The notes: a model not told the origin generated them from the letters alone. A stretch of DNA of 64,000 bases from Alphaproteobacteria bacterium (GCA_965222575.1 OZ244958.1:1024001-1088000), one strand, 5' to 3'; positions 9,234 through 58,108 are shown, counted from the first letter of the stretch. A program made the numbers and translations.

Positions 9234-11762
9234 ATGTGGCCTATTTTCAAGAAGTGGTTTAGTACGCCTGCGCGGTATCGACTTTCTAAGTATGGAGGGC
9301 AGGTGAAGATGGTTAATGCCATGGAGGCGGAATTTGAGGCTATGGAGGATGGGCAGCTGAGGGCGATGACTGAGACGCTTCGGGAACGTTTGAAGAACGG
9401 GGCGTCTTTAGAGGAGATTCTTCCTGCGGCTTTTGGGGCTGTGCGGGAAGTGTCTAAAAGAGCCCTTGGGCAGCGTCCTTATGATGTCCAGCTGATGGGA
9501 GGCATTGTTCTCAATGAGGGCAATATTGCAGAGATGAAAACAGGAGAGGGGAAGACCTTAGTGGCGACTCTTCCTTCTTATCTGAATGTTCTTGGGGGAA
9601 AATCTGTTCATATTGTGACGGTGAACGATTATCTTGCGCGGCGCGATGAAGTCTGGATGGGCGGGATTTTTCATCGTTTAGGCGTGAAGACGGGCTGTAT
9701 TACCTCTGGCATGAGTTTGGAAGAGAAGAAAAAAGCTTATGAAGCCGATGTGATGTATGGAACGAATAATGAATTTGGCTTTGATTACTTGCGTGATAAC
9801 ATGGCGTTGTCTGAGGAGAATCGCGTTCAGAGGGGGTTTGATTTTGCTATTGTGGATGAAGTGGATTCTATTTTGGTAGATGAGGCTAGGACACCTTTAA
9901 TTATTTCTGGTCCTGCTGAGGATCACACGGATCTTTATAAAGTTATCAATGATTTGGTAAGGAAGTTGGTTAGGGAGGATTATGTTTTGGATGAGAAGCA
10001 GAAGTCTGTGATTTTAAGTGATGGAGGTGTTGAGAAAGCACAGAAGTGGTTAGGGGAAAAGTCTCTGTTACGAGGGGATGATTTGTATGATTATGAGAAT
10101 GTGCAGTTGATGCACCATATCAATCAGTCCTTAAGAGCGCACACGTTATTTAAGCGTGATAAGGATTATATTGTGCGTCAGAATGCTGTTGTGATTATTG
10201 ATGAGTTTACGGGGAGGATGATGCCGGGTCGTCGATTTTCTGGTGGGTTGCATCAGGCTCTTGAGGCTAAGGAGCGGGTATCGATTTTGAAAGAGCAACA
10301 AACATTGTCTTCTATTACTTTTCAGAATTATTTTCGTCTTTATGAGAAGCTTGCTGGTATGACAGGCACGGCGGCCACGGAGGCGGAGGAGTTTTCTGAT
10401 ATTTACAATCTTTCGGTTGTAGAGATTCCCACGCATCGTCCTATGATAAGGGCTGATCTTCAGGATCAGATATATCGTACGAAGGAGGAGAAGCAAGCGT
10501 CTATTATTGGTAGGATTAAGGAGATTGTTAAGACACAACAGCCTCTTTTGGTTGGCACGGCCTCCATTGAGCAATCAGATTATTTTTCATCTTTATTGGA
10601 GAAAGAGGGGTTAGTTCATGAAGTACTCAATGCGCGCAATCATGAGAAAGAAGCGTTTATTATTGCGCAAGCTGGTCGTAAGGGGGCGCTGACGATAGCG
10701 ACGAACATGGCGGGTAGGGGAACGGATATTCAGTTAGGGGGGAATGAAGAGATGTTGATGCAGCAGTTAGAGGAGGGGGATGAGGAAGCGCGCGAGCGGC
10801 TTAAAGAGCAAGTAGCGACGGAGAAGGAGGAGGTTATAAAATTGGGGGGTCTTTATATTTTGGGGACGGAGCGTCATGAGAGTCGTCGTATTGATAATCA
10901 GTTACGGGGGCGTTCGGGACGACAAGGAGACCCGGGGAAGACCTGTTTTTTTCTTAGTTTGGAAGATGATTTGATGCGTGTATTCGGGTCGGAAAAATTG
11001 GAGAATATGTTGAAGAAGCTAGGCTGGGAGAAAGGAGAAAGTCTTGCTCATCCTTGGATTTCACGTTCTTTGGAGAAGGCGCAGGAAAAGATAGAAAACA
11101 GAAATTATGACATCCGTAAGACCTTACTGAAATACGATAATGTTCTCAATGAGCAAAGGACGATTGTTTACCAACAACGTAGAGAGATGATGCAGCAGGA
11201 AAGTGTAGAGGATATTATTGCTGACATTAAGGTTGAGGTGGTAGAGAATTTGTGGAGAGATTATGTGGCGGAGAATCCGACTGGGGAGCGTTTGAATGAG
11301 CTCAAGGAGGTACTGCGGGGGAAGTTTAATGTTGTTGTGAAGGAGGCGTGTGAGACGGCGGAGTCTCTGAAGGAGTTTGTGACAGATGAGATTGATAGGC
11401 GCATTGTGAACAATAGAGTTCTTGTAGGGCAAGAGAATATGGGTGGGATTGAACGGTCTTTTTTGTTACAGGTTGTTGATAGGTGTTGGAAGGATCATAT
11501 GTATAGTTTGGAGATGGTGAGGCAATCTGTGGGGTTACGTGCTTATGGGCAAAAGAATCCCTTAAGTGAGTACAGGAAGGAAGCGTTTCATCTTTTTGAG
11601 AAGTTTTTGCAACAGGTAAGAGAAAGGATTCTACAGATATTGCTGAATATCTCCATTCAGAAGAAGCCTGTTGTACAAGCACCTTCTGTGAAGAAGGTTC
11701 TTGTGAAAGGGAAAAAGGGTAATCCGCAGCAGAGGGGGCGGAAGAAAGGCAGGAGGCGTTAG
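9234..11762 (+). CDS. secA: preprotein translocase ATPase SecA
   Basis: MKTGEGKT, DEVDSILVDEARTPLIISG, ATNMAGRGTDI, QLRGRSGRQGDPG. Start at ATG 9234. Confidence 0.98.
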   Translation: MWPIFKKWFSTPARYRLSKYGGQVKMVNAMEAEFEAMEDGQLRAMTETLRERLKNGASLEEILPAAFGAVREVSKRALGQRPYDVQLMGGIVLNEGNIAEMKTGEGKTLVATLPSYLNVLGGKSVHIVTVNDYLARRDEVWMGGIFHRLGVKTGCITSGMSLEEKKKAYEADVMYGTNNEFGFDYLRDNMALSEENRVQRGFDFAIVDEVDSILVDEARTPLIISGPAEDHTDLYKVINDLVRKLVREDYVLDEKQKSVILSDGGVEKAQKWLGEKSLLRGDDLYDYENVQLMHHINQSLRAHTLFKRDKDYIVRQNAVVIIDEFTGRMMPGRRFSGGLHQALEAKERVSILKEQQTLSSITFQNYFRLYEKLAGMTGTAATEAEEFSDIYNLSVVEIPTHRPMIRADLQDQIYRTKEEKQASIIGRIKEIVKTQQPLLVGTASIEQSDYFSSLLEKEGLVHEVLNARNHEKEAFIIAQAGRKGALTIATNMAGRGTDIQLGGNEEMLMQQLEEGDEEARERLKEQVATEKEEVIKLGGLYILGTERHESRRIDNQLRGRSGRQGDPGKTCFFLSLEDDLMRVFGSEKLENMLKKLGWEKGESLAHPWISRSLEKAQEKIENRNYDIRKTLLKYDNVLNEQRTIVYQQRREMMQQESVEDIIADIKVEVVENLWRDYVAENPTGERLNELKEVLRGKFNVVVKEACETAESLKEFVTDEIDRRIVNNRVLVGQENMGGIERSFLLQVVDRCWKDHMYSLEMVRQSVGLRAYGQKNPLSEYRKEAFHLFEKFLQQVRERILQILLNISIQKKPVVQAPSVKKVLVKGKKGNPQQRGRKKGRRR

Positions 11763-11770
11763 GAGGTAAC

Positions 11771-12787
11771 ATGGTGGAGAAATTAGAGCAACAGCAACAA
11801 GAACAAGAACAAGAACAGTCTTCATCTCGTGTTGATTATTTGGAGTTTGAAGCGCCGATTTTGGTGTTGGAAGAAGAACTGCAATCTTTGGAAGAGAAGG
11901 CCCAAGTTGGTGAAGGTGAGGATGTTGAAAAGGATATAGGGCTTTTGAAGCAAAAGATTCGTGGGATGACTGAGAAGGTTTATAGCTCTTTGTCTCCTTG
12001 GCAGACAGTACAAGTTGCCCGTTGTGAGTCCCGTCCTCATACGACGGATTATATAGCGGAGCTTATTGATAATTTTGAGCCCTTGGCAGGCGATCAGTTA
12101 TTTTCTGAAGATGTATCTATTATAGGGGGGATTGGGAAATTTCAAGGACAGTCTGTTGTGGTGATTGGGAACAATAAAGGGGAGGTGTTAGAGGAGAAGG
12201 TTAAGAGCAATTTTGGGATGGCTAAGCCTGAAGGGTATAGAAAAGCGGTACGGCTGATGAATCTAGCGGAGAGATTTTCTTTTCCTTTGATTACTTTTGT
12301 GGATACGCCCGGTGCCTATCCGGGTATAGATGCAGAGCAAAGAGGACAAGCGGTAGCATTAGCCAAGGCCATTGAACGTAGCTTTACACTGAAAATCCCT
12401 TCTGTGTCCTTTATTATCGGAGAAGGGGGGAGTGGAGGTGCTGTAGCGTTAGCGTGTTCTTCAGTGGTGTGCATGCTAGAGTATGCCATTTATTCTGTGA
12501 TTTCTCCTGAAGGATGTGCTTCTATTTTGTGGCGTGATGTGACTAAGAAGGAAGAAGCGGCTCGTAACTTGAAACTCAGAGCGCAGGATATGAAGGCCTT
12601 TGGTATTGTCGATAGAATCTTGGAAGAGCCTCTAGGAGGGGCGCACAGGAATTCTAAGACAATGATTCACTCTTTAGGAAAAGTCCTTTGCGAGGAAATG
12701 CAAAAACTCTCTTCTCTTTCTCCTGGGCAATTACAGGAAAATCGTAGAGAACGATTTCTCAGTATTGCTAAAGTCTTTGATAAATAA
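11771..12787 (+). CDS. accA: acetyl-CoA carboxylase carboxyltransferase subunit alpha
   Basis: LEFE, PWQTVQVAR, FGMAKPEGYRKA, DTPGAYPG, GEGGSGGA, YSVISPEG. Confidence 0.97.
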   Translation: MVEKLEQQQQEQEQEQSSSRVDYLEFEAPILVLEEELQSLEEKAQVGEGEDVEKDIGLLKQKIRGMTEKVYSSLSPWQTVQVARCESRPHTTDYIAELIDNFEPLAGDQLFSEDVSIIGGIGKFQGQSVVVIGNNKGEVLEEKVKSNFGMAKPEGYRKAVRLMNLAERFSFPLITFVDTPGAYPGIDAEQRGQAVALAKAIERSFTLKIPSVSFIIGEGGSGGAVALACSSVVCMLEYAIYSVISPEGCASILWRDVTKKEEAARNLKLRAQDMKAFGIVDRILEEPLGGAHRNSKTMIHSLGKVLCEEMQKLSSLSPGQLQENRRERFLSIAKVFDK

Positions 12788-12791
12788 GCCC

Positions 12792-13055
12792 TCACACTGT
12801 GGGTAAAAGATCCAAAATTGACAAGGTATAATTATAAAGCTCCATGCCAACCCATCGTGCTGTTAAAAAGATAGTAAACGTTACGGCTATGAGCTTAATG
12901 GCAAAGGAAAGCGTTTGTTCTTGAATTTGTGTAAGAGCCTGTAGCAGGCTTACCAACGTCCCAATGCCCGCTGCTACAATAATAGGAGGCAAAGACAACA
13001 TTAAAATCAATACCAACGCTTTAGAGGTAATAATCACAATATCAGCTTCATTCAT
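12792..13055 (-). CDS. sctS: T3SS export apparatus protein SctS (YscS-like)
   Basis: 87 aa; LSLPPIIVAA..GTLVSLLQALTQIQEQTLSFAIKLIAV matches the SctS/FliQ family with YscS-type wording. Confidence 0.93.
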   Translation of the reverse strand: MNEADIVIITSKALVLILMLSLPPIIVAAGIGTLVSLLQALTQIQEQTLSFAIKLIAVTFTIFLTARWVGMELYNYTLSILDLLPTV

Positions 13056-13070
13056 ACTCCCTCATTCTAC

Positions 13071-13718
13071 TTACTGATAGGATAGAACTAGTCCCTTAAT
13101 AAGTCGTGTCCAACCATCTACCATGACGAATAAAAATAGCTTGAACGGTAGCGATATCGTCATAGGAGAAACCATCATCATGCCCATGGCTAATAGAATG
13201 TTAGAGATAATTAAGTCAATAGCAATGAAAGGAAGATAAACCAAAAATCCTATTTGAAAAGCCCCTGTAAGTTCACTAACAGTAAAGGAAGGAATTAAAA
13301 TGAGGAAGCTTTCTCTATCTGTTAAGGAAGCATATTCTTCTGTCCAGAGTTTGGAAGTAGCACGATAGAAAAATTCTGTGACTTTAGGGTCTGTATGTTT
13401 CCGCAAGAAACTAAAGAAGGGTTCTTTGACAGTATTGACAAGATTGATTAATTGTTCGGAATTATCAAAAGAGACCTCCATATCTTTCACTAAGTCCCAA
13501 GCCTGATAGCCAACAGGAGCCATAATATAAATAGACAGAATAATAGCCAACCCATTTAAGGCCATGTTAGGAGGAATTTGCTGTACGCCTAAAGCATTTC
13601 GTACTAAAGACAAGACAATCATGAGTTTGACAAAGGAAGTGACCATAATTGCAATGAATGGCACCATGGCTAGGCCTGAAAGAGCAACAATTAAGAGAAT
13701 AGGGTCAGGCGTTGTCAT
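13071..13718 (-). CDS. sctR: T3SS export apparatus protein SctR (YscR-like)
   Basis: VTSFVK, RNALGVQQIPPN, YLPFIAIDL, LAMGMMMVSPMTISLPFKL, DGW. No FliP-type N-terminal signal peptide. Confidence 0.95.
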   Translation of the reverse strand: MTTPDPILLIVALSGLAMVPFIAIMVTSFVKLMIVLSLVRNALGVQQIPPNMALNGLAIILSIYIMAPVGYQAWDLVKDMEVSFDNSEQLINLVNTVKEPFFSFLRKHTDPKVTEFFYRATSKLWTEEYASLTDRESFLILIPSFTVSELTGAFQIGFLVYLPFIAIDLIISNILLAMGMMMVSPMTISLPFKLFLFVMVDGWTRLIKGLVLSYQ

Positions 13719-13721
13719 TGT

Positions 13722-14723
13722 TTAGGATGTTGGCTTTTCTGTAGATGTTGGTGTTGCTGGTTTTCCCCTTGTAGGCGGTGGAGTTCCTCCTGCGTCTCTC
13801 CTAAGGGGTGCTGCTGGTTTTCCCCTTGTAGGCGGTGGGGTGACTCCTGCGTCTCTCGGTGCTGCTGGTTTTCCTCCTGTAGGCGGTGGAGTGACACCTG
13901 CGTCTCTCCTAAGAGGTGTTGCTGGTTTTCCTCCTGTAGGCGGTGGAGTGACACCTGCGTTTCTCCTAAGAGGAGGTGCTGCTGGTTTTCCTTCTGTAGG
14001 CGGTGGGGTGACACCTGCGTTTCTCCTAAGAGGAGGTGCTGCTGGTTTTCCTTCTGTAGGCGGTGGAGTGACACCTGCGTTTCTCCTAAGAGGAGGTGCT
14101 GCTGGTTTTCCTCCTGTAGGCGGTGGGGTGACTCCTGCGTCTCTCGGTGCTGCTGGGTTTCCCCCTGTAGGCGGTGGGGTGACACCTGCGTTTCTTCTAA
14201 GAGGAGGTGCTGCTGGTTTTCCTTCTGTAGGCGGTGGGGTGACACCTGCGTCTGGGGGTATTGCGAGTTCTCTTTCTGTAGGGATTGGTATGAGTGCTGT
14301 TGTTTCTGAGTTTGAAATGGGGGGCATCAAAGATTTTAGGGTGGTATTTTTGTCTGGTAGGTGATGTTCAGAGATTTGTACGCCTAGTCCATTGTCTATT
14401 CCTACAATGTTGCCTTTACCAACTGTGACTCCGTTGAGAGAGAGAGAGACAGGGTCTTTTTGTGTATTTTTTAGGGGGAAGATATGGCCTTTATGGAAGG
14501 TAGAAAATTCTTTGAGATTAAAGGATAGGGTTCCTAAAGAGAAGGATAGGGTGAGGGGGAGATGTTGTAGGGTCTGTAAGAATTTTTCTTCGCCTATTAT
14601 AGGAGGATTTTTTTTTATAGTATTGATATCTGTTGTTTTTTCTTTCTCTTGTTTGCCCTGTATTGTGTTGGTGTTAGGAGGGGGAGGGGAGGAGGATGTG
14701 GAAGAGGGAGGTGTCATAATCAA
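13722..14723 (-). CDS. sctQ: SctQ-like sorting-platform protein: single SPOA domain plus Pro-rich tandem repeat tail
   Basis: LPLTLSFSLG...VSLSLNGVTVGKGNIVGIDNGLGVQI is a FliM/FliN/SctQ C-terminal SPOA motif; the gene lies directly upstream of sctR. Confidence 0.8.
   Translation of the reverse strand: MIMTPPSSTSSSPPPPNTNTIQGKQEKEKTTDINTIKKNPPIIGEEKFLQTLQHLPLTLSFSLGTLSFNLKEFSTFHKGHIFPLKNTQKDPVSLSLNGVTVGKGNIVGIDNGLGVQISEHHLPDKNTTLKSLMPPISNSETTALIPIPTERELAIPPDAGVTPPPTEGKPAAPPLRRNAGVTPPPTGGNPAAPRDAGVTPPPTGGKPAAPPLRRNAGVTPPPTEGKPAAPPLRRNAGVTPPPTEGKPAAPPLRRNAGVTPPPTGGKPATPLRRDAGVTPPPTGGKPAAPRDAGVTPPPTRGKPAAPLRRDAGGTPPPTRGKPATPTSTEKPTS
13750..14252. repeat. nine-copy coding tandem repeat (51/57/60-bp units)
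   Basis: Units of ggtgctgctggttttccYYYtgtaggcggtggRgtgacacctgcgtYtctc(ctaaga(gga)); encode (D/N)AGVTPPPT(E/G/R)GKPAAP(PLR)R. All unit lengths are multiples of 3. Confidence 0.95.
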
Positions 14724-15361
14724 GCGGTGTCTCCGAGTTTGCTGATGAGTGCATTGGAGAGTGTTGTGAGCTGGGTGTTGAATCCGGCGTCTACGAGTCC
14801 GATTTCGCTTTCTATGATACAGTCTCCTTTTTGGAGGCGTGCGTCTGCTTTAGCGTCTGCGAAGCGGATGGAGTGAAAGCCTGAGAGAATGTCTGATAGA
14901 CATTCTTCAATGAGTGCGACTTCTAGTGGGCAGAGACGAATGGTGATTTTTTTTTGTTCTTTCATGACGCCGATGCCATTTCTGATGAGGTGTATCATTC
15001 GGGTTTTGACAGGTAGGGAGAAAAAGACTTTTTCTAAAATATTGAGGAGCATTTTCACGGCTTTGCTTTCTACGTGGCTGAAGTGTGAGACGACATCATC
15101 TAGTAGGGAGAGGTTATTTTCTGCGGCTTCTTCAGCGATTTGTTGCAGTCCCTCTTCATATCCTCTCTCACTAGCAGCGGCTAGGTTTTTGCGTGCGGTC
15201 TTGAGAATATTTTGTCCTTGTTGTTGTGCGGCTTGCACAATTTTTGTATCGCAAAATCTGTAAGGGGGGCGTAGAGAAAGAACGGGGGAGGGAATTTCTA
15301 TGAGGAATTCCTCTGGTAGGGTGAAGAAGGGAGCATAAGAAGAGGAAGGGGATGTTATCAT
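14720..15361 (-). CDS. sctL: T3SS stator protein SctL (YscL/HrpE family)
   Basis: A..RGYEEGL repeat motif; C-terminal DARLQKGDCIIESEIGLVDAGFNTQL; ATGA-coupled to neighbours. Confidence 0.88.
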   Translation of the reverse strand: MITSPSSSYAPFFTLPEEFLIEIPSPVLSLRPPYRFCDTKIVQAAQQQGQNILKTARKNLAAASERGYEEGLQQIAEEAAENNLSLLDDVVSHFSHVESKAVKMLLNILEKVFFSLPVKTRMIHLIRNGIGVMKEQKKITIRLCPLEVALIEECLSDILSGFHSIRFADAKADARLQKGDCIIESEIGLVDAGFNTQLTTLSNALISKLGDTA

Positions 15362-16104
15362 GAAGAGGGGAAGAGTTTGACAAGACGTCTTAGAAGATAA
15401 AAGCTTCCTTTAGTATCTGGAGTATGTGTTGAAAAGATAGACTGATAATCTTTAGGAAAAACTAACATTAATCGTTCTTTTAAGGGAGGTGATAGAGAGG
15501 AAGTGAGGACTTTGTTGAGGAGGTCAATGCCGATGTATTGGCACTGTTGAGTGATGGCGGCTGGGTTTTTGGTGTTTAGGTTTTGTTTGCAGGTGTGGAG
15601 TGTCTCTTCTCTTATGAAAGGAGAGGGAAAGAAACTGCCCTGACGGGTTATGAGGGTATAGAGGTCTTGTCCTAGGGCTTCTGTGAGGGAGAGGTGGCTT
15701 GCTCTATCGATGTGCTGGCATATCCAGGGAGAAATAGTGAGTGCGCCACTCCACAAACTGAGGCGTAACAGAGTATCAGGAGGGAAAAAGACGAGACTAT
15801 GGAAGGGTTCTACTAGTGTTAAGTCTACTGTGGTTTTGTGAGGTAAGGATTTTAATAACAGGAGGGATAAAACTTTTAGTCCTTCTTTATGTTTTGAGAG
15901 TGTTGCGTAGCCCGGAAGGGATTGCAACCAGCTAGGATGAGCATAGGTAGCAGGCCATGCGTTAAAGTGTAAAAGCTGCTTTTGTTTTTGGGGGGAGAGG
16001 GTAAGAAAGTCTATGGAAACGTAACACTCTGTCTTAGGGTGTTGGCTCTGGGTTTCCATGGGACAGGTTATGAAGTAGCGGTCTGTTTTTTCTTTTTCCA
16101 CCAT
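15358..16104 (-). CDS. sctK: SctK-like sorting-platform protein (YscK-like)
   Basis: Lies between sctJ and sctL; FNAWPATYAHPSWL resembles the YscK/HrpD-type N-terminal motif; later RLMLVFP. True start may be ATG 16059. Confidence 0.65.
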   Translation of the reverse strand: MVEKEKTDRYFITCPMETQSQHPKTECYVSIDFLTLSPQKQKQLLHFNAWPATYAHPSWLQSLPGYATLSKHKEGLKVLSLLLLKSLPHKTTVDLTLVEPFHSLVFFPPDTLLRLSLWSGALTISPWICQHIDRASHLSLTEALGQDLYTLITRQGSFFPSPFIREETLHTCKQNLNTKNPAAITQQCQYIGIDLLNKVLTSSLSPPLKERLMLVFPKDYQSIFSTHTPDTKGSFYLLRRLVKLFPSS

Positions 16105-16772
16105 AGGAAAGCGCCTACTGCGCCTGCTACGGCTAGTAGCAAGAAGATGACAATACCGACTAGGAGTCTTTTATTGGACTGTGCGGGTACGGGTTCAATG
16201 CTAGGGGATATGGAGGGAAAGAGGGCTACTGATACCTGGTCATAAGAGAGATTTTCAACACTGTTGGCGACGAGCAGTTTGATTTGCGGAATGTAGGATT
16301 CTAGTTCTATTACGGGTTGGTGTTTTATGAAAATAGCTGCTGAAGAAGGTTTGATAGTGGTTTCTATCTGAGAGGTATTTTCTGGTAAGACGAGGTGTAC
16401 CCGGGCGCTTAAGACTCCGTCGATGTGTGAGATGGTGGCGGATAATTCTTGAGAAAGTCCGTAAAGGAAGCGCACTTTTTCTTCCATAGGAGAGGAGATT
16501 AATCCTTCTTTGGGGAAGAGGTCTCCTATGTTGGCGAACTGGGAGCGAGGATAGCCTTGGAGGCGCAGAATATCAATGGCTGAGGAGACAAAGTTGCTGT
16601 CCACTGATAGGGCGGCTAAGTTGTCTTTCAGAGAGGTTTTTGTACTTTTAATGCCGGCTTTTTGTAGAATAGACCACATATCATTGATTTCTCCTTCGGG
16701 TAGAGAGGAAAAGAGCTGAGTCTGGCAACCCCAAAGGAAAAGCAAGAAAAAAAGTCCAATGAATACTCGCAT
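16068..16772 (-). CDS. sctJ: T3SS inner-membrane ring lipoprotein SctJ (YscJ/HrcJ)
   Basis: Lipobox LWGC, GYPR..F, GLISSP.EE, SQELS.TIS.IDGVLSARVHLVLP, C-terminal TM followed by KKKK; 234 aa, far shorter than FliF. Confidence 0.96.
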   Translation of the reverse strand: MRVFIGLFFLLFLWGCQTQLFSSLPEGEINDMWSILQKAGIKSTKTSLKDNLAALSVDSNFVSSAIDILRLQGYPRSQFANIGDLFPKEGLISSPMEEKVRFLYGLSQELSATISHIDGVLSARVHLVLPENTSQIETTIKPSSAAIFIKHQPVIELESYIPQIKLLVANSVENLSYDQVSVALFPSISPSIEPVPAQSNKRLLVGIVIFLLLAVAGAVGAFLWWKKKKQTATS

Positions 16773-16925
16773 GACATAGGGGTAAGAGTAAGTTCGAAAA
16801 GGGCTTTTTATATTGGCTCTTTTCTTCTAAAAATTCCGTTAAATCTTGAAAGAGAAAAAGGGATAGCTTTTTATTGGGATAAAAAGTATAAAAGGGATAC
16901 AAGAAGCGTTCCCTTATGTTGATGG

Positions 16926-18626
16926 ATGAAGAGTTTGTATAGGTTTTTTCTCAAGTTGTGGCGTGGGGTCTTAGCCTTTTTTTATCGTGTGGCTGTGACA
17001 ATTGTAGCCTTTCTCTTGATTGTGGTTTTTTTGGTAATTGTTGTGAAGGTGTGGGATAGGGGAGAAGGGTATGAGGCGCCTGATTTTTCGTTGAAGAATA
17101 GCCGGACAGTTGTGTTGGATATGGCGAGCATGCTCTCTCCACCTTGGTATAGAGCTGTTGTTGAGGGGGAACAATTTCTTTTAGGGGAAGGGATTTTTTA
17201 TACATTAAGAGAGCTTGAGGACCTTCCTTTTATTACAACAGTGATTTTGGATTTTTCTCGTTTTCCTCTCTCTTTAGTGATGGCAGAGGAGATTCGCAAT
17301 CATGTAGAGGCATTGAATCTTGCTGGGAAGACGACCATTGCGTTTTCGGAATCTTATGATATGAAAACCTTGTTAGCATCTAGTACTTGCCAGCAGCGTC
17401 TGATTTCTCCTATGAGTTTTAGTAGCTTATTGCGTGGGACTGTACTGAGTGTGTCTTACAATAGGGGATTGATGGATAAGTTGCGCATACGCCCTTATGT
17501 GTTTTCTACGGACCCTTATAAAACGGCTGCTAATACTGTGGAATACAAAACGATGCCGGAGGCTGATAGGGAGGTTTTCACCAGTATAGTGAAAGACCTC
17601 AATAGTTCTATTTTTGCCTCTCTTGAAGGTTCTATGGACTTTCCTGCGAAAACATTGCGTACCCTGTTAAGTACTCAGAAGCCCTTTTACTCAGGGGAAG
17701 AGCTTTTACAACAAGGGCTTGTTACAAAGGTACAGTCTTTTGAAGACCTTGAAAAGGAAATGGGGAAGGTGTCAATTATTGGCTCTTATGAAGAGTTTAG
17801 GCAGGAGTCGGAAAAGTTTATGGAAACGTTTGCTTATACGCAAATAGGGGAGCTTTATCTACAGGGGGGGATTGGAGATCGTGAGGCGGATATTTTTATT
17901 GAAGAGCTGAAGAGTGCTGAGAATAATGCTTCTATTAGGGGGATGTTGGTGTACCTTAATAGTCCGGGTGGAGGGTTTGAGTCTTCTCGCAGGATTTATG
18001 AAGCGGTGAGGAAGGCAAAGAAGCCAATTGTGGTACTGTTAAGAGACATGGGGACATCTGGAGGGTATTATGCTGTTGCGGCGGCAGATAAAATTGTAGC
18101 CTATTCTTCTACTATTACGGGGTCTATAGGGGTTTTTATGGCTCTTCCTATGGTCAAGGAGTCTTTGGAGGTGATTGGTATTAATACCTATAATGTTTCT
18201 GAGTTTCCTGATGATAAGACGGCGCTTTTTCTTACGGAGCCTTTAAGTGAGGGGCAGCAAGGGGGTCTTGAGCAATATGTTGAGAAGCTTTATGATATTT
18301 TTATTGAGGATGTGGCAAAGGGGCGGGAGGTGACGAAGGCGGAGATAAATCAGGTAGGGCGCGGACGTGTGTGGACTGGGAGTCAAGCTTTGGAGCAACA
18401 TCTTGTGGATAGTCTAGGAGGCATAGAGGTTGCACTTACTCATTTGAAAGTCTTATGTGGCATTCCTGCTGATGAGCGGGTGAATCTTGTGAAGATTACG
18501 AAGAAGCGTAAAAGGGAAATTGCTAGTCGTTTAGGCTTACTTTTTTCAAAGTTGTTTGTGAAAACTTTTTGGTCAATAGAAGAGCAAGAGCTTTTGTATC
18601 GTTCCCCTATTATCAATATTCACTGA
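16926..18626 (+). CDS. sppA: signal peptide peptidase SppA (long form, S49)
   Basis: N-terminal TM, YKTA Lys, NSPGG, TSGGY Ser, TGSIGV, GRVWTG.QA. Confidence 0.88.
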   Translation: MKSLYRFFLKLWRGVLAFFYRVAVTIVAFLLIVVFLVIVVKVWDRGEGYEAPDFSLKNSRTVVLDMASMLSPPWYRAVVEGEQFLLGEGIFYTLRELEDLPFITTVILDFSRFPLSLVMAEEIRNHVEALNLAGKTTIAFSESYDMKTLLASSTCQQRLISPMSFSSLLRGTVLSVSYNRGLMDKLRIRPYVFSTDPYKTAANTVEYKTMPEADREVFTSIVKDLNSSIFASLEGSMDFPAKTLRTLLSTQKPFYSGEELLQQGLVTKVQSFEDLEKEMGKVSIIGSYEEFRQESEKFMETFAYTQIGELYLQGGIGDREADIFIEELKSAENNASIRGMLVYLNSPGGGFESSRRIYEAVRKAKKPIVVLLRDMGTSGGYYAVAAADKIVAYSSTITGSIGVFMALPMVKESLEVIGINTYNVSEFPDDKTALFLTEPLSEGQQGGLEQYVEKLYDIFIEDVAKGREVTKAEINQVGRGRVWTGSQALEQHLVDSLGGIEVALTHLKVLCGIPADERVNLVKITKKRKREIASRLGLLFSKLFVKTFWSIEEQELLYRSPIINIH

Positions 18627-41185: not shown

Positions 41186-42001
41186 ATGAAGGAGTTACAA
41201 TCGGGGATAGAGAGTCTGTGGGAGAATCGGTCTTCACTTGATTGGCATCAGGATAGAGGGGCCTGTTTACTTGTGGAGGAAGTGATAGAGGGGTTAGACA
41301 GAGGGGATTTGCGGGTAGTGGAGCAGGATTGCCATGGGGGTTGGCAGGTTTGTGAGTGGTTGAAGAAAGGGATTTTGTTGTCCTTTTCTTTTTATAGCAT
41401 GAAGGTGAAGAGGGGGTATTGGTATGATAAGATTCCGCTTAAGGTAGAGGATTGGGAGGAGAGGAATTTTAAGCGTATGGGTGTGCGGATGGTACCTGGG
41501 AGTATTGTACGCAAGGGCAGTTTTGTAGAGAGTGGGGCGATTTTAATGCCTTGTTTTATCAATGTTGGCGCTTGGGTTGGGAGAGGGAGTATGATTGATA
41601 CTTGGTCTACGGTTGGGTCTTGTGCTTATGTAGGTCGTGGGTGTCATATTTCTGGGGGAGTAGGGTTAGGAGGGGTATTAGAGCCACTACAGAGTCGTCC
41701 GGTGATTATAGAGGATGAGTGTTTTATTGGGGCGCGCAGTGAGATTGCTGAAGGGGTTATAGTGGGGAAGGGGAGTGTGATTGCTATGGGGGTTATGTTG
41801 GGGGCGTCTACTAAAATTATTCATCGTGAGACGGGGGAGATTTTTCAGGGTTGCGTACCGCCTTTTTCAGTGATTGTTCCGGGGGCGTTTAAGGATAGGC
41901 GTTGTGAGGGGGTTTCTTTAGGGGCTGCGGTGATTGTGAAGACGGTGGATGAAGGCACGCGAAAGAAGACCTCTATTAATGACCTTTTAAGAGATATTTG
42001 A
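41186..42001 (+). CDS. dapD: tetrahydrodipicolinate N-succinyltransferase
   Basis: WLKKGILLSF, DKIP.K, INVGA.V, DTWSTVGSCA, GGVLEPLQ, KTSINDLLR. Confidence 0.97.
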   Translation: MKELQSGIESLWENRSSLDWHQDRGACLLVEEVIEGLDRGDLRVVEQDCHGGWQVCEWLKKGILLSFSFYSMKVKRGYWYDKIPLKVEDWEERNFKRMGVRMVPGSIVRKGSFVESGAILMPCFINVGAWVGRGSMIDTWSTVGSCAYVGRGCHISGGVGLGGVLEPLQSRPVIIEDECFIGARSEIAEGVIVGKGSVIAMGVMLGASTKIIHRETGEIFQGCVPPFSVIVPGAFKDRRCEGVSLGAAVIVKTVDEGTRKKTSINDLLRDI

Positions 42002-43168
42002 TGTCTTTTTGTCCAGTGGAGTTAGCGCGCCTTTTGTTGCGGGTTCCGTCTGTTACGCCTGCGCCTCTTAAAGCATTTACGCCTTTAGAGGCAGTGTTAA
42101 AGCCGGTGGGATTTCAGTGGCGAGTCCTGTCTTTGAGTGAGAAAAATTCTCCCTCTGTTTACAATGTTCTTGCTTTTTTTGGTCAAGGGAAGCCTCATTT
42201 TTGCTTTAGTGGCCACCTTGATGTTGTGCCTCCCGGTGATGAAAAATGGAGATACCCTCCTTTTAGCGGAGAGGTGAAAGAGGGGGTCTTGTGGGGGAGA
42301 GGGGCAGTTGATATGAAAGGTGCTGTTGCTGCTTTTGGGGTAGCAGCCGGAAAGTTTTGCGCTACAGAGGATTTTCAAGGCACTGTGAGTATGCTGCTCA
42401 CAGCTGATGAAGAGGGAGAGGCCACTTGTGGTACTGTCAAAGCCTTACAATGGATGCTCAATCATAGTAGCTCTTCTCTTCCACCTCCTTCTCTTGTTCT
42501 TGTAGGCGAGCCTACCAATCCTGCACAATTTGGAGAGATGATAAAAATTGGCAGGCGGGGGTCTTTTTCCGGAGAACTCTCCTTTTTTGCTCCCTCCAAG
42601 CATGTGGCTTATGGAACAGTGCGCGATAATCCTATTTTTCCCCTTCTTTGTGTTTTGAAGACCTTATCCTTGACTCCTATAGAAGCTGGTAGCGACTATT
42701 TTGAACCCTCCTCTTTTCAGGTGACTTCTCTTGATGCTAGAAGTGTAGCCCCTAATGTAACGCCTGAAAAAGCGACTTGTGCTTTTAATATACGGTTTTC
42801 ACCTTTGATGAATGAGGAGAAGATTATAAAGGCTATTGAGACTGTTTGCGCTGACTGCGTGTGAAAATTATACGCTTCGTGGGCGCGTGAATTGTGAGCC
42901 CTTTCTAAGCCCTCTTTCTTGGGAGGCTAAGATGCTAGCGTCCATAGTCAAGAAGGTGACCAAAATTTCCCCTGTGTTTGACACTAAGGGAGGAACATCT
43001 GATGGACGTTTTTTCGCGCCCCTTTGCCCTGTAATAGAGTTTGGATTAGTGGGGCAGACCATGCATCAGGTTAATGAGCGGGTGGCTGTAGATCATCTTC
43101 ATAGTCTTGCTACAATTTATGAGCGATTTTTAAGGGCTTATTTTTCCGCTACTTCTTCATCACTGTAG
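41998..43168 (+). pseudogene. dapE: succinyl-diaminopimelate desuccinylase, split by a frameshift at 42830-42864 (real or assembly error)
   Basis: ORF1 has GHLDVVP, GRGAVDMKG, DEEG, GEPT, GRRGS; ORF2 (+1 frame) has GGTSDGRF, EFG, MHQVNE. Confidence 0.85.
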
Positions 43169-56896: not shown

Positions 56897-57027
56897 ATTT
56901 CCCTTTTGATAAGTTGTTGCAGGAGAAATTTTTCACTCATAAGGTATTAACATGTATAATTAGGAAACAGTGTGAAAGATTGTATAGAGAATCCCTAAAG
57001 ATTGTCAATGAAAAAATTCCCGTTCTT

Positions 57028-58108
57028 ATGAGTAAAGACCCTAGAAGGCAAGTGAGAAAGAGGCTAGAAGAGAGAAAAAAAATTGCTATCTTGGGTGCAG
57101 GAAGCATAGGATGCAGTTTCGCCTCTCTGTCTTTGTCTAAAGGTCATGAGGTCTTATTACATCCGACGCCTTTCGATAAAGAGATTGTACAGATGATGCG
57201 TGACAAAAAGCCTCACCCTGTTTTGGGAATTTCTTTTTCAGAAGCCATAGAGACAGGCCAGTTAAAAATCTCTTATGATGAACTAGCTATTAAAGATAGT
57301 ACTTTGATATGTATAGGAGTAAGTAGCACAGGTATTTTGTGGTCTATAGGGGTATTAGAGAGAATATTTGCTCAAGTATGTGTACCTGTTTTGTTGTTAA
57401 CGAAGGGGTTAAAGATAGAAGAAGAGAGGCTTTCTTTTTTTTATGAAGGGATAGAGAAGAGGGGATTTTCTGTAGTTGTTGCGGCGGGGCCTTGTATTGC
57501 GAGGGAGTTAGCGCAGCATCGGCTAACGCATGTAGTATTTGCGGGAGAAAAGGCAGAGATTTGCAGGAAGATTTTTGAGACGGCGTTTTTTTCTGTTGAT
57601 GTGAGCGATGATTTGGCTGGGGTTTCTTTGTGTGCGGCACTTAAGAACATTTATGCTATTGGTATTAGTGCGGCTTTGGGGACTGGCGGGAAGGGCACTG
57701 ATGGAGGTGCACTAGTGTGCTGGCACTAGTGCCGGTTCGGTGTTGCCTAATGTAGCGGCGGCGTTTTTTGCGCGTAGTTTAGAGGAGATGGGATATCTTT
57801 GTGAACAGGTGGGTGGGAAGAGAGAAACGGCTCTTGGCGGGGGCGGGAGCGGGGATTTATTTGTGACAGTTCTTGCGGGAAGAAATGGACGTTTGGGACA
57901 GCTTTGGGGAGGGGGGAAAGCCCCTAGTGTTGCTCTTTCAGAGATGAAGACAACTGTGGAAGGTTATCATTTGGCGCAAAAACTTGCTTCTCCGTTGCGT
58001 ACTTATCTTTCTAGCAAGCAGTGGAAAGCGGAAAAGGTGTCTCTTTTAGTCTCACTTGTGGAGGGTCTTGTGAAGGATAAGTCTTTTGATTTTTCCTATC
58101 TTAAGTAA
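57028..58108 (+). pseudogene. gpsA: NAD(P)H-dependent glycerol-3-phosphate dehydrogenase, split at 57716-57729 (real or assembly error)
   Basis: ORF1 has ILGAGSIG, TKG, GPCIAREL, AALKNIYAI; ORF2 (+1 frame) has EM, GDLFVT, GRN, TVEG. Confidence 0.8.

Follow-up and report, generated by a model that had tools for sequence, protein, structure and literature searches.

Type III secretion systems (T3SS) of the Ysc family are represented by Yersinia Ysc, Aeromonas Asc and the clusters of Achromobacter/Oxalobacteraceae and of R. etli IE4803/Belnapia, and are encoded in one plasmid or island locus; a single contiguous locus is typical of the family, not defining for it. In Chlamydia, the J-K-L genes are joined to R-S-T without a Q gene. 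The chlamydial system comprises 10 operons in five loci according to the accessible text of PMC2734247, and the available part of PMC3574062 describes HrcQA/HrcQB as a split SctQ and gives a split secretin and the lack of SctP as features of the Rhc family. Here we analyse six genes, sctJ-K-L-Q-R-S, that lie between accA and sppA in a 64,000-nucleotide (nt) stretch of an alphaproteobacterial genome (G000:C1 1024001-1088000; hereafter the window). They probably form a translationally coupled operon of a complete, dispersed Ysc-family injectisome that has long been resident in a reduced-genome alphaproteobacterium. Judged from sequence, the block is a real and probably working sub-operon of this machine.

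The six open reading frames (ORFs) fill window positions 12792-16772, all on the minus strand. The sequence-only reading of this DNA had proposed six tightly packed genes in this order between accA and sppA, and the ORF layout and family models both agree with it. The block and its neighbours are listed below in window coordinates, with lengths in amino acids (aa).

11771-12787, plus strand: accA (NF004344, 426 bits), convergent with sctS, with 4 nt between both stop codons.
12792-13055, minus strand: sctS, export-gate subunit, 87 aa (TIGR01403, 104.1 bits; cut-off 76.5).
13071-13718, minus strand: sctR, export-gate subunit, 215 aa (TIGR01102, 276.8 bits; cut-off 208.6; NF009438, 298.5 bits).
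13722-14723, minus strand: sctQ-C-like gene, 333 aa (Pfam FliMN_C, 45.2 bits at aa 51-119).
14720-15361, minus strand: sctL, stator that connects the ATPase with the sorting platform, 213 aa (TIGR02499, 94.9 bits; cut-off 78.7).
15358-16104, minus strand: sctK, fast-evolving sorting-platform adaptor, 248 aa (Pfam YscK, 22.4 bits; cut-off 22).
16068-16772, minus strand: sctJ, inner-membrane ring lipoprotein, 234 aa (TIGR02544, 209.2 bits; cut-off 161.95; FliF model, 47.4 bits).
16773-16925, no strand: divergent sctJ-sppA intergenic region of 153 nt, presumed promoter region of the six-gene operon.
16926-18626, plus strand: sppA (TIGR00706, 170.8 bits, above cut-off), divergent from sctJ.

The genes are closely coupled: sctJ and sctK overlap by 37 nt, sctK/sctL and sctL/sctQ by 4 nt each, and gaps of 3 and 15 nt separate sctQ from sctR and sctR from sctS. 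This tight coupling suggests a single transcript that starts in the 153-nt gap before sppA. Terminator-like sites number 17, compared with 6.1 +/- 2.4 expected, but this excess is not informative, as a tandem repeat in the sctQ-C-like gene contributes several of the sites on its non-coding strand. The rest of the window is occupied by housekeeping genes (secA, topA, priA, dnaK, leuS and others).

The sequence of the block is corroborated by short-read contigs from two independent public runs, which span positions 11500-13856 and 14222-18000, are identical to the window or differ by a few single-nucleotide polymorphisms (SNPs), and confirm the accA|sctS, sctL|sctQ and sctJ|sppA junctions. Contigs from a third run (second study; share 0.19) provide pieces of 151-458 nt with 0-2 differences. 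Between 11500 and 18000, the contigs of a second strain show 10 SNPs relative to the window, nine of them synonymous. Six fall in the T3SS genes, where SctK A67P is the one non-synonymous exception; this pattern, from a small sample, hints at sequence constraint on the block. The second strain's contig also carries a 6-nt insertion at window 11795, in a Gln/Glu-rich repeat at the accA start.

SctJ has an N-terminal signal peptide that ends in Cys and, at the C-terminus, a hydrophobic anchor with KKKK after it; it matches Pfam YscJ_FliF as well as its curated model, and in the PDB matches MxiJ (E 1.7e-24), EscJ and PrgK. SctL matches AscL (E 3.2e-21) and DvuL (E 1.5e-26) by phmmer. SctK lies between J and L, the same position as in Yersinia and Aeromonas, and a hidden Markov model (HMM) that we built from 20 ORFs located between sctJ and sctL in other clusters matches it alone (E 2.2e-19) among the 13,052 stop-to-stop ORFs covered by our genome-wide profile searches. 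A word-index search of 5.8 billion proteins with SctK returned only SctK itself and no relative; among the same number of proteins, the closest relative of SctR is 68% identical. The public gene call of sctR begins 17 codons downstream, resulting in a protein of 198 aa.

Pfam gives flagellar-type names to four of the six proteins (FliP, FliMN_C, FliH, YscJ_FliF), as would be expected if a remnant of a flagellar export apparatus had been misread as an injectisome. However, for eight proteins (SctS, R, J, L, N, T, U and V) the non-flagellar equivalog is the higher-scoring model. These eight, together with SctC and SctD, exceed the NCBIfam Sct cut-offs, whereas the FliQ, FliP, FliF, FliH, FliI, FliR, FlhB and FlhA models all fall below their own. 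Within the block, this applies to FliP on SctR (178.5 bits, cut-off 217) and FliQ on SctS (71.8 bits, cut-off 88.9), and the FliH models reach 40 bits or less on SctL. Secretin, needle, gatekeeper, SctX/Y and an SseC-family translocator are present, and SctV branches within injectisome clades, away from the five FlhA rows used as outgroup. FHIPEP, FlhB-like and YscJ/FliF-like genes were each found only once in the genome, which therefore has no flagellar export apparatus and a single system. The sequence-only reading had raised a grouping with flagellar FliP/Q/N/H as a possible objection. Model scores and the SctV tree refute it, leaving a flagellar origin with a negligible probability.

The remainder of the apparatus is encoded elsewhere in the genome, which is a single contig of 1,215,846 bp (GC content 45.7%) with 97.6% marker completeness. 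The four other loci are listed below in genome coordinates.

240.8-246.7 kb, minus strand: locus A, SctW (YopN and TyeA fused)-SycN-SctX-SctY-SctV-SctD-SctF.
332.6-340.3 kb, plus strand: locus B, YscG-like-SctI-SctL2-SctN-SctO-SctP-full-length SctQ-SctT-SctU.
402.2-404.9 kb, plus strand: locus C, YscB-like chaperone-SctC-RsbW-like kinase-STAS protein.
849.0-852.7 kb, plus strand: locus E, two LcrH-type chaperones-SseC-family translocator (SctE)-297-aa ORF-CesT chaperone.

The sequence-only reading noted that J-K-L is joined directly to Q-R-S, leaving out N/O/P, T/U and F/I/C/D, and proposed that the injectisome is scattered through the genome. Both points hold, as all of those genes are found at the other loci and the core genes occupy five loci, 60-450 kb apart, of one 1.2-Mb contig. 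Read from ORFs, locus A abuts a gene beside succinate dehydrogenase and locus C adjoins groES/groEL-like ORFs. It had also been considered that the remaining core genes might be absent and the block a relic. Instead, SctC, D, F, I, N, O, P, T, U, V, W and the translocator are all open frames, as are all of the approximately 25 T3SS-related ORFs examined. SctN (648.7 bits), SctV (941.8), SctU (412.8), SctT (238.4) and SctC (412.1) score above cut-off and lack internal stops, and the same is true of SctD (105.1 bits, including neighbouring in-frame stretches). SctX reaches 64.3 bits with TIGR02502 (cut-off 30), SctW 115 bits and the SseC-family translocator 61.7 bits; SctY (46.4 bits, cut-off 70) and SycN (41 bits) fall below their cut-offs. 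SctI, SctO, SctP and the YscB- and YscG-like chaperones are also present. The 297-aa ORF of locus E has no family match, occupies the position of a second translocator and is likely to be SctB.

No host-directed secretion machine besides this T3SS was found in the genome, with neither VirB4 nor TssC detected in the 97.6%-complete sequence. Immediately after SctC, the genome encodes an RsbW-type anti-sigma kinase (HATPase_c_2) and a STAS anti-anti-sigma protein (404113-404903, plus strand; L013:8113-8903), which points to partner-switching control of secretion.

With respect to family, the parts list is common to this genome and to Ysc systems, and the sequence-only assignment of a Ysc affinity, made by eye, is upheld by the SctX/SctY/SycN set in Yersinia order and by the highest identities among seven named references. 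SycN, SctX and SctY stand ahead of SctV, and SctX and SctY are specific to the Ysc family. The shared accessory set further includes YopN/TyeA (fused here), YscB before SctC and YscG before SctI. Local orders are kept as well: J-K-L, N-O-P-Q, R-S, T-U and W-SycN-X-Y-V. Adjacency of V and D is common to this genome, R. etli, Belnapia and a Lentisphaeria metagenome-assembled genome (MAG). Identity to Yersinia/Aeromonas is 57% for SctV, 66-67% for SctN, 59-63% for SctR, 59-63% for SctS and 46-47% for SctJ; for SctN, N. vulgaris ties with Yersinia/Aeromonas at 67%. The identities of SctV to a wider set are as follows.

60%: Achromobacter sp.
59%: an alphaproteobacterial MAG; Photobacterium.
58%: Belnapia; an Oxalobacteraceae MAG.
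57%: Yersinia LcrD; Aeromonas AscV.
52-54%: R. etli IE4803; N. vulgaris.
47%: Chlamydiae.
43%: Ralstonia Hrp2.
41%: Rhc (S. fredii).
39%: MxiA.

In a quick maximum-likelihood analysis of 39 SctV/FlhA rows, five of them the FlhA outgroup, the protein groups with the alphaproteobacterial MAG (G041), Achromobacter and Oxalobacteraceae (Shimodaira-Hasegawa approximate likelihood-ratio test, SH-aLRT, 85) on an end branch of 0.51. This group adjoins R. etli/Belnapia, with Yersinia/Aeromonas nearby, and belongs to a starred set of 19 rows (SH-aLRT 99); the uncertainly placed long branches of Hrp1, Rhc and Mxi fall in this set too. Our trees carry SH-aLRT support only, with no bootstraps, and were built without rows for SPI-2/LEE, Pseudomonas aeruginosa or Bordetella. 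The suggestion of an undescribed T3SS lineage therefore needs to be narrowed: the long isolated branch stands (nearest SctV 60%, nearest SctR 68%), but it falls inside the Ysc-like radiation. On these trees, the system is best classified as a divergent member of that radiation and not as a new family.

Other described systems resemble it in part. As in Chlamydia, the apparatus genes are dispersed among housekeeping genes over five loci of a small genome. However, the chlamydial SctV rows form their own starred clade (support 100), and on the proteins of this genome the chlamydial models PRK05933, PRK06328, PRK05922, PRK06298 and PRK05910 fall well short of the Ysc-type ones. In contrast to Rhc systems, SctC is unsplit (one 535-aa ORF), SctP is present with an HpaP/FliK-type C-terminus, and SctV belongs to a different clade from the S. 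fredii protein. The Desulfovibrionales-type T3SS on the plasmid of Nitratidesulfovibrio vulgaris DP4 is likewise Ysc-like, with SycN/X/Y-V, and is flanked by STAS and SpoIIE partner-switching genes, comparable to the kinase and STAS genes after SctC in this genome. It differs in its single plasmid locus, its unsplit 475-aa SctQ and its SctV, which is 52% identical and belongs to another clade; its own layout breaks the R|S junction, with R at one end and S-T-U after V. Relative to Ysc loci, this genome is distinguished by five chromosomal loci, J-K-L joined to Q-R-S, N-O-P-Q joined to T-U, a SctQ in two genes and a second SctL. LcrV, LcrG and LcrR were not detected here with Aeromonas queries, and no LcrV is annotated in the R. 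etli and N. vulgaris relatives either.

The SctQ of this system merits particular attention. The window gene had been read as sctQ and does carry an SctQ-type SpoA domain, but this reading needs correction: the protein has only the C-terminal SpoA part of SctQ plus a tandem-repeat tail. It consists of approximately 48 N-terminal residues, one SpoA domain and a Pro/Thr/Gly/Ala-rich tail of 209 residues (27% Pro, 13% Thr, 13% Ala, 11% Gly). Two features are located within the gene.

14370-14579, minus strand: SpoA (SPOA2-type) domain, aa 49-118, from Pfam, our own SctQ HMM and PDB matches.
13750-14253, no strand: tandem DNA repeat encoding the tail, with units of 51/57/60 nt, period about 60, 8.8 copies and 87% matches, open in three frames.

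PDB matches of the SpoA protein are FliN, SpaO SPOA2 (4tt9), YscQ-C (3uep) and, weakly, HrcQB (1o9y, E 0.46). An HMM that we built from 10 full-length SctQ proteins matches exactly two ORFs of the genome: the window ORF and an ORF after sctP (Q2, genome 337413-338402). Because Q2 is matched over its full length (HMM positions 9-331) and the window ORF only over the last SpoA domain (positions 259-330 or 238-330, the former aligned to aa 49-118 with E 1.1e-15; 49-51 bits), SctQ is split into two genes, as in HrcQA/HrcQB. Pairwise BLASTP finds no significant similarity between the two proteins, and profile methods are needed. In YscQ, SpaO and Spa33, SctQ-C arises from an internal translation start. 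As with HrcQB of the Pseudomonas syringae Hrp1 system and SctQ-C of Yersinia, Salmonella and Shigella, the window gene specifies a separate polypeptide that is essentially the C-terminal SpoA domain. It departs from HrcQA/HrcQB, which are adjacent, in that the two genes lie approximately 700 kb apart (genome 337 and 1038 kb), in its Ysc-like rather than Hrp1 context and in its tail.

A SpoA-only gene lies immediately before sctR in all seven other reduced alphaproteobacterial genomes that we inspected. The proteins are 129-179 aa long in six of the seven and 442 aa in G041, where Pfam PT repeats precede the domain; the relatives' proteins end within about 10 residues of the domain and have no C-terminal tail. 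The SpoA-only gene before sctR is a clade trait, whereas the repeat tail is, in this comparison, seen only in the window genome, and the presence of the gene in 7/7 relatives argues that a stand-alone SpoA gene works elsewhere in the clade. In G041, a 1.6-Mb alphaproteobacterial MAG, the gene (L121:10187-11515, minus strand) has approximately 300 aa of N-terminal tandem repeats, which mirror the C-terminal repeat tail of the window protein. In G278 (L150, G278:C1:61768-74364), an inverted sctV separates a 211-aa N-terminal SctQ part, which comes after sctD-sctP, from a SpoA-only gene followed by sctR-S-T-U.

The repeat unit of the window gene is exclusive to its locus, with none of 17 high-scoring segment pairs elsewhere in the genome. 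Repeat-rich proteins cluster around the T3SS loci. In SctP (genome 335880-337136; L011:9880-11136), a SKAPQNLQQA-like motif of about 10 aa recurs many times before the HpaP/FliK-type C-terminus. Downstream of SctU, a 465-aa protein without a family match (genome 340366-341763; L011:14366-15763) has PTPAPP-type repeats at its end. Also beside the SctU locus are paralogous 711- and 330-aa proteins (genome 342725-345965, minus strand; L011:16725-19965) with long shared repeated segments and no family match. A few kilobases from the SctV locus, two ORFs (genome 234455-236047; L012:2455-4047) contain tandem Tyr-containing motifs (PEYINTK-like; DNYLDPIEVRRQQPP-like); they too have no family match and are candidate secreted proteins.

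The genome also encodes a second SctL (L2) at 333484-334080, between sctI and sctN. Our own SctL HMM matches exactly two genome ORFs, the window SctL at 127 bits and L2 at 67 bits, and the window copy is the better conserved of the two paralogues. Their identity of 20% does not reach significance in pairwise BLASTP; again, profile methods are needed. In the SctL tree, 2 of 20 inner branches are starred and the end branch of L2 is 4.6. A clade of L and L2 is not rejected (approximately unbiased test, p-AU 0.84), and the constrained tree is 8 log-likelihood units better than the free quick tree; both are long branches. Among the systems compared, a second, divergent SctL appears only in this genome.

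These two dissimilar SctL copies and the unique L|Q-R-S junction could be taken to indicate that the block is a recent island, with J-K-L-Q-R-S acquired from another donor than the N/T/U/V loci and replacing native genes. The evidence from composition does not agree with this. The block has a GC content of 0.449 and a plus-strand GC skew of +0.262, equal to its 20-kb flanks (0.446/+0.318 and 0.449/+0.246), and 4-kb windows of the genome have a mean GC content of 0.457 (standard deviation 0.024). Its skew tracks the replication strand although its genes sit on the other strand. Likewise, no mobile-element signature was found: tRNA and Rfam scans of the window matched nothing, none of the 59 other window ORFs of at least 80 aa has a transposase or integrase match at E<=1e-10, and repeats flanking the block are limited to chance-like short matches. 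The sequence-only observations of host-like composition and of no integrase, tRNA, insertion sequence or flanking repeat are therefore borne out by the scans. In both the R+S and the T+U tree, the five nearest rows are Aeromonas, Yersinia, the alphaproteobacterial MAG, Belnapia and N. vulgaris, and reference systems rank alike by identity for window-encoded and distant components. Because of this agreement, one source for the whole machine is the simplest reading; the compatibility of L and L2 with a common clade also argues against separate donors. We regard replacement by a recent island as highly unlikely. With regard to the proposed ancient acquisition, long residence is supported by composition, skew and scattering among housekeeping genes.

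To place the arrangement in context, we searched an even sample of 401 class genomes that included G000. SctJ exceeds its cut-off in 17, i.e. in 16 of the 400 others, and 10 of these 16 are assemblies of 2.0 Mb or less (rounded sizes; completeness 83-100%). Among 13 sctJ loci from class relatives, eight have sctN next after sctL, two have sctN after sctJ/sctK without a sctL match, and three have no sctN match. None of the 13, and none of the seven named reference clusters, joins J-K-L to a SpoA gene and R-S; in this comparison the J-K-L|Q-R-S junction is seen only in the window genome. J, R, V and C were located in seven small relatives. They form a single cluster of 15-25 kb in G278, G121 and G230, two loci in G270 and G394, and three loci in G184 and G041, where N/O/P, the translocon and T/U lie within the same three loci. 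With five loci, the window genome is the most fragmented of the eight. The small alphaproteobacterial relatives thus share the Ysc-like family, the SpoA-only gene before sctR and partial dispersal, although none is of the same order. Injectisomes of this type are not unique among small alphaproteobacterial genomes.

The assignment of the host to the Alphaproteobacteria, made in the sequence-only reading, is supported by GcrA, an Alph_Pro_TM protein (95 bits), DnaK and class-level kin. GcrA (PF07750) is above cut-off in the genome; among 14 control genomes, it matched Caulobacter and, oddly, Sulfolobus. DnaK is 66% identical to that of Belnapia, an alphaproteobacterium, and 59-62% to four others, one itself an alphaproteobacterial MAG. 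All 40 of the nearest species genomes compared share the class only, and no same-order relative was found among the 400 class genomes sampled. A host-restricted lifestyle would fit the split genes described below, the small genome and the strong GC skew, and genome size and content would be compatible with the symbiont or parasite that had been proposed. The skew reaches +/-0.3 in 50-kb bins, with sign switches near 1150 kb and 560-600 kb. The window also encodes a prolyl-tRNA synthetase (58158-59633, minus strand) of the family I type, with 445 bits for TIGR00408 (above cut-off) and 79.8 bits for NF008979 (cut-off 550). We take the former to be the archaeal/eukaryote-like type and the latter the alphaproteobacterial type; the gene may be an old transfer.

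While a complete, resident injectisome accounts best for these observations, several findings weigh against it. Decay is active in the genome, as dapE and gpsA are each found in two ORFs of this window, probably frameshifted genes or pseudogenes.

41998-42861 and 42836-43165 (overlapping), plus strand: dapE halves, both matching the same NCBIfam model.
56914-57726 and 57740-58105, plus strand: gpsA halves, both matching the same NCBIfam model.

In addition, Q2 and L2 are very divergent (29 and 67 bits on our own HMMs), and SctF, directly after SctD, scores 40.1 bits, just below its cut-off of 41.7. An LcrV/LcrG-type tip, YscE and a pilotin were not found with Aeromonas queries. More broadly, phmmer searches of the 13,052 ORFs with Aeromonas AcrV, AcrG, AcrR, AopD, pilotin, AscH, AscG, AscK, AscP and AscQ gave no match at E<=0.01, although AcrV, AcrG and AcrR are fast-diverging proteins that such a search may miss, and AscE matched only three large unrelated ORFs (16.9-24.7 bits), which we take as spurious. 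A scan for sigma-70 promoters is no richer than chance (10 sites, compared with 8.4 +/- 2.7 expected). The repeat tail has no known role on a cytosolic SpoA protein, and short-read contigs break inside the tandem repeat, leaving tail length and copy number without independent confirmation.

A predicted complex of Q2 with two SpoA copies gives weak support to their partnership. It scores 0.58, compared with 0.26 for the best of three controls; its runs share at least 65% of contacts, and partner pLDDT (predicted local distance difference test) is at least 69. Of 157 solved complexes, 116 reached the mark, as did 2 of 215 mismatched pairs, but scores of 0.60 or less include only 18 of the 157 solved complexes and both passing mismatches. 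Similar complexes (SpaO/SpaO-C type) are already solved, and the pass may reflect likeness or memory only.

Some of these points, namely the split dapE and gpsA, the extreme divergence of SctL2 and SctQ2, the odd tail and the tip protein not found with Aeromonas queries, are what would be expected of a decaying relic, i.e. a T3SS shattered by genome erosion that no longer assembles and whose open frames survive through slow decay. This appears unlikely when set against the state of the genes themselves. The T3SS-related ORFs are all open, with the core ones above curated cut-offs, operon coupling is kept, and five of the six SNPs in the window's T3SS genes are synonymous. Moreover, some 25 kb of useless genes would hardly be expected to stay intact at five sites in a deletion-biased 1.2-Mb genome.

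If the injectisome is expressed and assembled, its mechanism may be outlined from established injectisome architecture. The block would supply the SctJ ring, three cytosolic parts of the sorting platform (SctK, SctL and the SpoA protein as the equivalent of SctQ-C/HrcQB) and two of the five export-gate subunits. SctR and SctS would nucleate the export gate together with SctT, and SctJ and SctD would ring it. SctK would dock SctQ pods to SctD, Q2 would act with dimers of the window-encoded SpoA-only protein, and SctL would tie the pods to the ATPase SctN. The host is most likely a deep-branching alphaproteobacterium with a reduced genome, in which dispersal would have come about by rearrangement inside a long-resident chromosome and not by recent transfer.

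The likely course of this rearrangement can be considered from the relatives. G041, Belnapia (L-N...R-S-T-U-W...V-D) and N. vulgaris (C-D-F-...-J-K-L-N-O-P-Q-R) point to an ancestral layout that we infer to be (G-I-)J-K-L-N-O-P-QA plus QB-R-S-T-U, compared with G-I-L2-N-O-P-QA-T-U plus J-K-L-QB-R-S at present. J-K-L and T-U could have moved, together with a separate duplication of sctL. Alternatively, the array could have been duplicated and complementary genes then lost, which would explain in one step why a second sctL lies exactly where J-K has been removed. Extending the latter route, the genome could represent an order-level, host-dependent lineage of Alphaproteobacteria that relies on a Ysc-type injectisome rebuilt by duplication of a G-I-J-K-L-N-O-P-QA-QB-R-S-T-U array and complementary loss. 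We offer this as a tentative proposal that is rather doubtful as it stands. If true, one copy kept G-I-L2-N-O-P-QA-T-U and the other J-K-L-QB-R-S, and the machine would need both loci. It would also contain two diverged SctL stators, which may pair as a heterodimer, and its pods would include a SpoA subunit bearing a long, disordered, Pro-rich tail.

We found no description of the organism or of this arrangement in the open-access literature, including the accessible text of PMC11909080. As read from the genome, the chlamydia-like scattering is clear and well documented, and it is accompanied by a unique J-K-L|SpoA-R-S operon, a tailed SpoA subunit and a second SctL. Rickettsiales rely mainly on type IV secretion. 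For Holosporales, the available part of a review names type VI secretion as the group's candidate host-interaction system. A lineage with a T3SS only adds a third route beside these two. In addition, the dispersal of injectisome genes, treated as a hallmark of Chlamydiae, arose again here in a Ysc-type system of a reduced alphaproteobacterial genome, and milder dispersal is found in at least four of the seven other small alphaproteobacterial genomes. Together they provide a natural experiment on which injectisome gene neighbourhoods must stay linked. In the window genome, J-K-L, N-O-P-Q, R-S, T-U and W-X-Y-V-D-F are still linked, and the L|N, Q|R-type and S|T junctions are broken. Likewise, the stand-alone SpoA gene, present in all eight genomes, makes the question of SctQ/SctQ-C stoichiometry accessible to genetics.

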